From: Lachnospiraceae bacterium
GTDB lineage: Bacteria > Bacillota > Clostridia > Lachnospirales > Lachnospiraceae
Direction of reading: 5' to 3'
Assembly: GCA_022792535.1 (NCBI GenBank)
Contig: JAAWBG010000036.1
Coordinates: 7,031-71,030 of the forward strand
Length of the DNA: 64,000 bases
Both the position numbers and the translations under genes were made by a program. The notes under the pieces were generated by a model. That model had not been told where the DNA came from, did not search any database, and was given only the letters and a program-made list of their open reading frames with translations. Positions 25,181 to 27,072 of this stretch are shown one piece after another. Position 1 is the first letter of the stretch, and every line of letters starts with the position of its first letter.

Positions 25181-25891
25181 TCAGCCTCGTTTTAAGGTAC
25201 GCACATACTCTTTTTCCTCTGCAGAAACTTTCAAGGATTCTGTGATTTTTTGAATCGCCTTGTTATGGGTAAAATCATTTAGTGTATTTTCTTTTAAAAA
25301 AGGCAGCGTCTCTTTGGGAAATTCCCGGTAACAGATGGACACCGCCCAGGCCTGAGCCATATTCACATAATAATCCTCCTGCCTTACCTGCTGCACTGCT
25401 TCCAGCACCTGCATCAGATACCTCTCATTGATATAATAATTCAAAAACTGTACCAATGCAAAACGGATCTCGAATTCCCTGGAACTGTTCTGATAAGTCT
25501 TTAAAAATTCCCACATCTCTTCCGGCTGGGTTTTTGCCAGTTTTATGGTAGAACATACGCTGTCGCAGACAGACCAGTTGTCAATCTTGGGAATAAATTT
25601 TTCCAGATATTCCTTTTTCTCCTGGAGATTTCCTTTGGCATATCCTAAAGTCATGCCCTGCAGAATGATCTCCTCATAGCTGCCGTCCAAAGCTCCATCC
25701 AGATAAGTTCTCCAGTCTCCCTTTGCCAGTTCCTTAGCTAATTTCCGCAAAGCCGGTATCCGCACCCCTAAGATAGGCTCCACCCCTGGCAGCAGTTTTG
25801 CCGTAAAGGCTTGAAATTCCGGCTCCCGAAGCTGTTCTAATTGCTCTCGGATCTCACCGTTGATCCCTGTGGACCTCTCTCTATGTTCCAC
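25181..25891 (-). CDS. DNA alkylation repair protein (AlkD-like)
   Basis: ILGVRIPALRKLAK, IDNWSVCDS, YYVNMAQAW motifs; GTG start with AAGGAG RBS. Confidence 0.85.
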   Translation of the reverse strand: MEHRERSTGINGEIREQLEQLREPEFQAFTAKLLPGVEPILGVRIPALRKLAKELAKGDWRTYLDGALDGSYEEIILQGMTLGYAKGNLQEKKEYLEKFIPKIDNWSVCDSVCSTIKLAKTQPEEMWEFLKTYQNSSREFEIRFALVQFLNYYINERYLMQVLEAVQQVRQEDYYVNMAQAWAVSICYREFPKETLPFLKENTLNDFTHNKAIQKITESLKVSAEEKEYVRTLKRG

Positions 25892-25928
25892 CTCTGTTTC
25901 TCCTTTTCATCTTCTTTTGTCTCGAACA

Positions 25929-26238
25929 AAGCGGACAGGTCCGCTTCAACTCCCTGAATCCCTCAATTTTGAGGGACCTGGACGGTTTGCTGCGCCGAGC
26001 ACAATTGCGAAGCAATATTTTACCTCTTGTGCGAGTGCGCATATTATTTTTATCTTATAGGAATATACTTTCACGCTTTAGCGGGACAAGGTCTTTCCTA
26101 TAAGACAAAAAGAATCCTGCTCCGCAGGATTCTCCGCCTGCGGCGGGCCGCTCTCGCGGTTCACTTCCTTTCCGCCGCAGTGCGATCCCCTGAGGGTTTT
26201 TATCGTATAGGAAACTTCGTTCCCTATACGATAAAAAA
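25929..26238. repeat. Cluster of short palindromes including four copies of a 17-bp motif
   Basis: At least 8 consecutive hairpins; TTTTT(A/G)TC(G/T)TATAGG(A/G)A at 26047(+), 26095-26111(-), 26197(+), 26221-26237(-). Confidence 0.7.
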
Positions 26239-26244
26239 CAATTG

Positions 26245-26253
26245 TGTTATAAT
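26245..26253 (+). promoter_or_regulatory. Extended -10 element upstream of the long hairpin and ogt
   Basis: TG-T-TATAAT; no good -35. Confidence 0.45.
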
Positions 26254-26272
26254 ATATAGAAAATCAATAGAG

Positions 26273-26548
26273 AATTATGGAACCCAGTAATTGTAGTAAT
26301 TTCATGTACAATTTAGAAAACTTAAAGTAAATATTTTACTCCTACAAAAGCTAAAAAATGCATTTTAGCACCATGAAAATGAGACTTAAAAACCATGGAA
26401 GTTTTTACTGAACATGGTTTTTGTTTTAAGAGGCTCATTGGAATGTTTGGTGCGTCCAGCATTTTGTGCTTTTCGTGGGAAGTAAAATATTCAGGAAAGC
26501 GTGTAAAAATTGTACATAAAATTCCAATAATTTAGCAGTTCCACAATT
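26273..26548. ncRNA. 276-nt rod-like imperfect inverted repeat, candidate structured RNA or decayed MITE
   Basis: Nested helices paired by hand, including two perfect 11-bp stems flanking a 15x15 symmetric loop. Confidence 0.5.
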
Positions 26549-26583
26549 ATTTATAAAAGTCAATTACGAAAGGACACTGCCCC

Positions 26584-27072
26584 ATGAAATACTTTGATCA
26601 TATTTCCACCCCTTTGGGAGAAATGCTTCTGATAGAAGAAAACAATGCCATCACTCACTTATCTCTTCCGGCCAAAGAATCACTTCCAGAGGATTTTTTG
26701 AAAACCTCTGCCATAGAGCAATGCACTCCTGTGATTCTTTCCGCAAAAGCACAATTGACGGAATATTTTCAAGGTAACCGGCGGGAATTTGATCTGCCTC
26801 TCAATCCCTCAGGGACGCCTTTCCAGAAAAAAGTCTGGAAGGCTCTCTGCACCATTCCCTATGGGGAAACACGCAGTTATAAGGACATCGCTGTTCAGAT
26901 TGAGAATCCAAAGGGCTGCCGGGCTGTGGGAATGGCCAACAACAAAAACACCATCATGATTATCATTCCCTGCCACCGGGTGATCGGAAGCAATGGTTCT
27001 CTAGTGGGATACGGAGGGGGACTGCATATCAAAGAATGGCTGCTGGCTCATGAGAGAAAATATTCTCTCTGA
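26584..27072 (+). CDS. ogt: Methylated-DNA--protein-cysteine methyltransferase
   Basis: GTPFQKKVW..IPYGETRSY, RAVGMANN, active-site IPCHRV. Confidence 0.93.
   Translation: MKYFDHISTPLGEMLLIEENNAITHLSLPAKESLPEDFLKTSAIEQCTPVILSAKAQLTEYFQGNRREFDLPLNPSGTPFQKKVWKALCTIPYGETRSYKDIAVQIENPKGCRAVGMANNKNTIMIIIPCHRVIGSNGSLVGYGGGLHIKEWLLAHERKYSL

Follow-up and report, generated by a model that had tools for sequence, protein, structure and literature searches.

The window, which is the whole 64,000-nt stretch of DNA that was analysed, comes from a Lachnospiraceae genome (G000 in what follows). The feature of interest lies in it between an AlkD-like gene and ogt, which are divergently oriented and whose pairing is kept across the genus, as judged from synteny. 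The locus contains the following features:

25181–25891, minus strand: AlkD-like DNA-alkylation repair gene, divergent from ogt (Pfam PF08713, 3e-17)
26245–26253, plus strand: extended −10-like box TGTTATAAT, read from the sequence, 14 nt upstream of the MITE described below
26315–26329, plus strand: 5′ side of a 15 × 15 internal loop of a hairpin, with its partner at 26492–26506 (MFE structure, and RNAalifold consensus columns 47–65 and 228–245)
26568–26574, plus strand: Shine-Dalgarno (SD) sequence of ogt, GAAAGGA, read from the sequence; its AGGA starts 17 nt past the end of the MITE
26584–27072, plus strand: ogt, 6-O-methylguanine DNA methyltransferase, 162 aa (Pfam PF01035, 5.5e-35; PF02870, 5e-9)

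In RNAfold analyses of both strands, a long hairpin is formed at 26273–26548, where an earlier sequence-only reading had placed it. The MFE is −82 kcal/mol on the plus strand and −84.3 kcal/mol on the minus strand, and the comparison with shuffled sequences proposed in that reading gave z-scores of −7.2 and −9.9, respectively, with none of 200 shuffles as good on either strand. The 15 × 15 internal loop appears in the MFE structure. A repeat search recovered the perfect 11-bp pair at 26330–40/26481–91 and the 15-nt apical loop closed by the AAAAACCATG/CATGGTTTTT pair, together with the outer arms of the hairpin, which form a 48-nt pair at 26267–26314/26507–26554 (75%). The location of the hairpin thus stands as it was given, and its extent had to be redrawn: alignment with other copies gives a unit of 26268–26553, which is 5 nt more on each side. 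The flanking signals were also as described, with the TG-TATAAT element present as the TGnTATAAT box TGTTATAAT and the ribosome-binding site of ogt as GAAAGGA. The only ORFs that overlap the unit are three of 42–46 aa (26322–26462, 26395–26535 and 26435–26563).

Since a consensus scan in which a −35 hexamer was required returned no sigma-70 site in 26150–26650, we infer, rather than read off, that the TGTTATAAT box is probably the promoter of ogt, from which a transcript would traverse the whole MITE. The MITE very probably sits inside the ogt 5′ leader, between the TGnTATAAT box and the SD sequence. In this respect, the earlier suggestion of a structured ogt 5′ UTR is retained for its location; a regulatory role of the window copy for ogt is something that nothing requires. 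The rest of the alkD-ogt spacer is filled by a second dispersed repeat (25924–26186, in some copies to ∼26238) that is unrelated to the MITE and far commoner, with 177 BLAST matches in G000; most genomes of the genus have many copies of it. This second repeat is modular, has TTTCCTATAAGA/TCTTATAGGAAA motifs at its boundaries, and includes GC-rich hairpins, the stems of which vary among copies yet still pair. Its left end lies 20 nt from the CTCC (minus-strand GGAG) of the SD sequence of the alkD-like gene.

When G000 was searched with the window hairpin, full-length matches of 74–80% identity were obtained on other contigs, along with pieces at contig ends. The genome copy number, which the sequence-only reading had proposed to determine, is about 30 loci according to a profile search: 12 full copies (272–328 nt), ∼6 copies that are cut by contig ends, ∼6 internally deleted minis (66–157 nt) and ∼10 fragments. 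Among public loci, the longest full copies reach 371 nt. Alignment of the copies shows that the family has 17-nt TIRs with the consensus TAGGTAATTGCGAAACT/AGTTTCGCAATTACCTA. The same TIRs bound elements of ∼45 to 450 nt with unrelated interiors, so the termini are the functional unit. The TSDs differ from copy to copy and are exact, with 10–13 bp, at young copies, which are 94–95% identical, and degraded at older ones; in a set of 74 two-ended elements, the exact TSDs have lengths of 8–13 bp and are AT-rich. The family members are therefore classed as MITEs: they are short and non-coding, have TIRs and copy-specific TSDs, occur as dispersed copies and have ends in common with a transposase-encoding element (see below).

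Of the 24 other species of the genus sampled at first, 12 contain the ∼285-nt family; it was missing from all 16 genomes taken from other families of the order. An exact 19-nt terminus occurs in many genomes labelled by NCBI as Lachnospiraceae, Roseburia, Anaerosporobacter and Eubacterium; its few scattered matches in unrelated taxa are compatible with chance for a 19-mer. An isolate genome of the same genus (G041, whose coordinates equal those of G350) contains ∼160 TIR matches. Three full copies in G000 form a subfamily in which the apical part of the rod carries a 44-nt insertion (C113:1917-2244, C95:43999-44326 and C1:8643-8968), the first of which lies ∼5 kb before the start of the window. 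Two short derivatives of the MITE flank thyA (C97:7706-8854), and two more flank rsmA and its neighbouring gene (C148:88882-90917); these bracketed loci show dense invasion of leaders. Several TIR pairs were considered as an autonomous element and rejected. The larger pairs in G000 are those that hold thyA on C97 and rsmA with its neighbour on C148, the pair at C1:40969 is a 157-nt mini, and pairs that are 2–4 kb apart in public loci enclose ordinary host genes. Recurrent ORFs beside solo TIRs were likewise dismissed as transposase candidates, being only orthologous host genes.

The conservation of the hairpin was analysed with RNAalifold in 26 full copies from many genomes. In the consensus rod, 97.3% of cells are paired, and the 15 × 15 loop is unpaired throughout the family. 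Compensatory changes in homologs, for which the sequence-only reading had proposed to look, were found at 34 of the 77 consensus pairs, in which both partners have changed. The corresponding number in shuffles is 15.5 ± 2.3 pairs, none of 500 shuffles reached 34, and slid-register controls gave 3–10 pairs. The compensatory changes across copies show that the rod has been under selection and is more than a palindrome inherited by descent. In a mobile element, covariation among copies reflects selection on those lineages that go on multiplying. The hairpin thus matters, which would be compatible with a role in DNA form, by holding the ends together or forming fold-back intermediates, or in RNA form, as a self-contained leader insert.

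The copy in the window has the following parts:

26268–26553, plus strand (the orientation of the family model): MITE copy of 286 nt, a diverged singleton of the ∼285-nt family (nhmmer profile match to model positions 2–285; alignment with 25 other full copies)
26268–26284, plus strand: left TIR, decayed, TAGAGAATTATGGAACC against the family consensus TAGGTAATTGCGAAACT (from alignments)
26537–26553, plus strand: right TIR, decayed, AGTTCCACAATTATTTA against the consensus AGTTTCGCAATTACCTA (from alignments and sequence)
26258–26267, no strand: left TSD, degraded, AGAAAATCAA, which matches the right TSD at 7 of 10 positions
26554–26563, no strand: right TSD, degraded, TAAAAGTCAA, followed by an 8-nt gap (26564–26571) before the GGAC of the ogt SD sequence

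This copy is 71–78% identical to every other copy. Ten of its 77 consensus pairs are not Watson-Crick, which is the highest number of broken pairs among all copies compared (1–9 in the others, mostly 1–5), and 67 still are. Two changes in its right TIR are matched by complementary ones in the left TIR. The altered termini were found in no other element compared, and a variant-TIR subfamily was rejected for want of another member. The imperfect repeat at 26258–26267 is read as a TSD because younger copies have exact 10–13 bp duplications at the same junctions. The window copy looks like an old insertion whose lineage is otherwise lost in G000 and which is now decaying.

The site upstream of ogt is empty in relatives. 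Their alkD-ogt spacers are 470–615 nt shorter than the spacer of G000, part of the extra length of which is the second, unrelated repeat, and none of the 48 other genus genomes searched has the MITE upstream of ogt; where relatives have matches to the MITE, these are elsewhere in their genomes. The comparison is one between species, and the spacers are too diverged for base-by-base alignment. The layout can still be compared: in relatives, a −10-like box is followed by a short AT-rich stretch, GAAAGG and the ATG, and the same order is obtained for G000 when the MITE and one copy of the TSD are removed in silico. TSDs, copy-number differences and empty sites between diverged species together suggest mobility of the MITE.

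A transposase-encoding element with the same ends was found on a 2,988-bp contig (L101:267-2042). It is 1,776 bp long, contains a 505-aa ORF, is flanked by an AT-rich repeat and has TAGGTAATTGCGAAAC and TAGGCGTTTGCGAAAC as its two termini. Seventeen further IS insertions in Lachnospiraceae end in TAGGTAATTGCGAAAC and TAGGCGTTTGCGAAAC, and these termini also occur in C. saccharobutylicum and other clostridia. Intact copies of these ISs, which we refer to as ISCb1-type, have 1,745–1,776 bp and encode a transposase of ∼500 aa, and exact TSDs of 9–12 bp surround eleven of the insertions. TAGGTAATTGCGAAAC is the stop-proximal terminal repeat of the ISs (IRR). The MITE carries this IRR-type terminus at both ends, with a common stretch of 16–17 terminal bases, and has a TSD range of 9–13 bp in common with ISCb1-type elements. 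It differs from them in being ∼285 nt long and non-coding and in having an unrelated, fully self-complementary interior. No similarity between this interior and the IS was found beyond the terminal 16–25 nt, so the MITE did not arise by an ordinary internal deletion. A ∼300-nt unit in another genome (L133:1473-1772, G023:C17) has an IRL-type end opposite an IRR-type end and retains a short piece of the transposase gene; it is an internally deleted ISCb1-type element part-way to a MITE and thus an intermediate.

The only Pfam model passed by the L101 transposase is DUF772 (PF05598), in its N-terminal domain. Its best NCBIfam match is transpos_IS1182 (NF033551), with 67.8 bits against a cut-off of 270, and the IS1182 family was rejected for this reason. 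The protein is 74% identical to P0076, which NCBI names 'ISNCY family transposase ISCb1', and 71–72% identical to two Alkaliphilus ISNCY transposases (P0062 and P0064). By the NCBI names of these relatives, the putative partner transposase belongs to the ISCb1 group (ISNCY). ISCb1 itself is reportedly an element of Clostridium beijerinckii, said to have been described by Liyanage and colleagues in 2000, and ISNCY is said to stand for 'not yet classified'; the likeness noted here is to relatives named after ISCb1 and not to the sequence of ISCb1 itself. The IS1182 family, in which TSD length is variable, resembles the partner in the DUF772 N-terminal domain and the best NCBIfam match, and is set apart from it by the model cut-off and by the placement of the partner under ISNCY by NCBI.

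Homologues of the ISCb1-type transposase occur in 31 of 300 genera of the family Lachnospiraceae; among 48 other genomes of the genus, 23 have them, at up to 25 matches each. Two complete genomes of the genus, G360 and G346, have 25 and 15 ISCb1-type protein matches, respectively, many of them near-identical, and in G360 some of the elements stand in tandem ∼250 nt apart (2344110/2345877 and 3853777/3855546). The transposase was not found in G000, the assembly of which is 92.7% complete and consists of 150 contigs; a copy may be unassembled, or the MITE may be immobile in G000 now. Transposases of the IS4 type (PF01609) were also considered as partners, a subgroup of IS4 being known to generate TSDs of 10–13 bp, and were rejected since none of the elements of this type in G000, G008 and G041 carries the TIR of the MITE. 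One IS4-type element of G041 (L119:795-2366, on C11) is ∼1.57 kb long, encodes a 417-aa transposase and has a 10-bp TSD (GATTGTCCTT/GATTGTACTT). In inverted orientation, the terminal repeat of this IS, CTTGAGTTTCCGCA, looks like the inner portion of the MITE TIR, a likeness that may be due to chance.

The insertions are positioned with respect to SD sequences. In 34 full MITE copies, one end is typically 28–34 nt from a start codon. Across the 148 flanks of the 74 two-ended elements, GGAG begins 17–21 nt past the element end in 51 cases and at any other single offset 0–4 times, and ATG peaks at +30 to +32. An SD-like motif is present at 15–26 nt in 68 of the 74 elements (92%; left in 32, right in 31 and on both sides in 5), compared with a chance rate at random intergenic positions of G000 of 3.7% by a strict and 18% by a loose definition. 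GGAG lies 8 nt from the SD-proximal edge of the TSD in 23 of 27 cases (sd 0.94) at any TSD length between 8 and 13, and the total offset increases with the length of the TSD (r = 0.81). The constant 8-nt gap, combined with the variable TSD, indicates that one joint is measured from the motif and that the other floats. The window copy obeys the rule of the family, with a 10-nt TSD, an 8-nt gap, the GGAC of the ogt SD sequence, and the ATG at 26584, 30 nt past the end of the MITE; its SD and ATG offsets match the family peaks.

The ISs insert at the same spot upstream of GGAG. In 18 of 18 distinct insertions, the SD-like motif adjoins the IRL, which is the transposase-start end, and the same is true of five more distinct insertions in other clostridia, so that all 23 with a readable flank agree. 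In contrast to the ISs, which always face the SD sequence with the IRL, the MITEs, with IRR-type ends on both sides, are targeted in both orientations. No record of the MITE family or of the SD target rule was found in the searchable literature, outside which the original ISCb1 description and ISfinder lie, and to our knowledge neither has been described before.

The hairpin had been proposed to be a 6S-like variant or an uncatalogued RNA, and an independent structured RNA gene with its own promoter upstream of ogt, whether a 6S-like promoter mimic or a new sRNA, would account for several of its properties. Like 6S RNA (RF00013), the hairpin consists of a long closing stem and a terminal stem with an open loop in the centre; its fold z-scores are strong, its stems are backed by compensatory changes, and G·U cells outnumber A·C cells by 66 to 17 (25 to 14 pair columns) in the orientation of the window copy. 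Against this, the Rfam scan that had been suggested gave no match for the hairpin and only noise at a permissive E-value, and no match to RF00013 was obtained in 25800–27000 even at E up to 10, whereas the canonical 6S RNA gene of the genome lies at C107:27312-27490 and scores 64 bits against a cut-off of 46.4. Where 6S RNA has a single dedicated gene with its own signals, the hairpin is multi-copy, has TIRs and TSDs, is AT-rich and apparently mobile, and is ∼100 nt longer. No sigma-70-like promoter was found in the MITE or at its ends and no terminator-like site inside it, which fits passive read-through. Copies lie in both orientations to the neighbouring gene, and in a hand tally the excess of G·U over A·C is alike in both classes (36 to 10 with the gene on the right, 23 to 7 with the gene on the left); it is therefore a trait that belongs to the lineage of the element rather than to the local mRNA, and was rejected as a sign of in-situ selection on mRNA. 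With the window copy being the most decayed of all, an RNA gene can be given hardly any credence. A decayed MITE had been listed as the alternative to prefer if many copies with TSDs came to light, and such copies are what was found. That the window copy, a MITE by origin, was co-opted as a cis-regulatory leader of ogt, e.g. as an RNase III-processed or translation-modulating 5′ UTR, is an improbable reading but one that draws on its position between the TGnTATAAT box and the SD sequence, on the retention of 67 of 77 Watson-Crick pairs despite 22–29% divergence from other copies, and on the analogy with ERIC and Correia hairpins, which alter mRNA stability when they are co-transcribed. It is weakened by the absence of the insertion upstream of ogt in the 48 other genomes and by the larger number of broken pairs in the window copy than in any other. 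Moreover, the position is the one predicted by the insertion rule of the family, so selection need not be invoked to explain it.

The rule itself could be a product of survival and not of target choice, if insertion occurred anywhere in AT-rich spacers and only this distance from the SD sequence were tolerated or useful. All copies seen are survivors, and the constant orientation of the ISs, IRL to SD, could reflect selection against read-through activation of the transposase gene. Yet the spacing is exact to the nucleotide and independent of TSD length, and it is common to elements from 45 nt to 1.77 kb. It also holds in five IS copies of G137 that are identical and thus recent insertions. 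At L101, nothing but ATG-TGA follows the adjacent GGAG, so the motif seems to be recognized rather than a working gene start. Survival as the source of the rule therefore seems quite unlikely.

Taken together, we are confident that 26268–26553 is an old singleton MITE copy, that the family to which it belongs bears ISCb1-type IRR ends and inserts by GGAG with a joint 8 nt upstream, and that the copy is probably co-transcribed with ogt. In the mechanism that we propose, an ISCb1-type transposase supplied in trans would move the MITE and would select its target through the purine-rich GGAG in a ribosome-binding site. Of the two strand-transfer positions, one would lie at a constant 8 nt upstream of GGAG, whereas the other would float 8–13 nt further upstream, generating the variable, AT-rich TSD. 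At the locus in the window, the MITE would have inserted between the −10 box and the SD sequence, within the short leader of ogt, and then decayed; probably, the ogt transcript includes it in the form of a long self-paired rod. A self-paired insert may transpose better, its ends being held together, or may do less harm to the leader that it invades. A more general form of this proposal is that ISCb1-type transposases use the SD sequence as a DNA ruler, cutting once 8 nt upstream of GGAG and once 8–13 nt further, that the ISs and their MITE swarm colonize 5′ leaders across Lachnospiraceae and other clostridia, and that the covarying rod makes insertion into leaders tolerable or aids transposition; in this general form, we consider the arguments for and against it to be evenly balanced.

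Other short repeats and other transposons have parts of this behaviour. ERIC, Correia/NEMIS, RUP and BOX elements are short, multi-copy and intergenic and form long hairpins, often in transcribed leaders or trailers, and the family in the window resembles them in being short, multi-copy, intergenic and hairpin-forming. RUP and Correia elements have a short, fixed TSD, and the present family differs from this group in its TSD of 8–13 bp, its SD-fixed position and its partner IS. Insertion at a set distance from a recognized DNA feature, with control of orientation, is known from Tn7 (attTn7) and from IS1397/ISKpn1 (REP loops). The fixed distance and the orientation control in the autonomous element are similar here. 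In contrast to those systems, the feature is a motif of 4–7 nt that lies upstream of most genes and offers thousands of potential sites, and no separate target-selector protein is evident for ISCb1-type elements.

These findings turn a 6S-like rod upstream of ogt into what is very probably a decayed transposon copy. Such rods will be mistaken for structured RNAs in annotation and will break assemblies, several copies in the present case lying at contig ends. The family is a MITE in which the whole hairpin is kept by compensatory evolution, which bears on the question of whether MITE hairpins act as DNA or as RNA. It also offers a testable case of a DDE-type transposase that would choose its sites by a very short motif with nucleotide precision. 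If the target motif is the ribosome-binding site, every insertion falls in the leader of a gene, and ISCb1-type elements and their MITEs could rewire expression across many genes of the Lachnospiraceae that are abundant in the gut.
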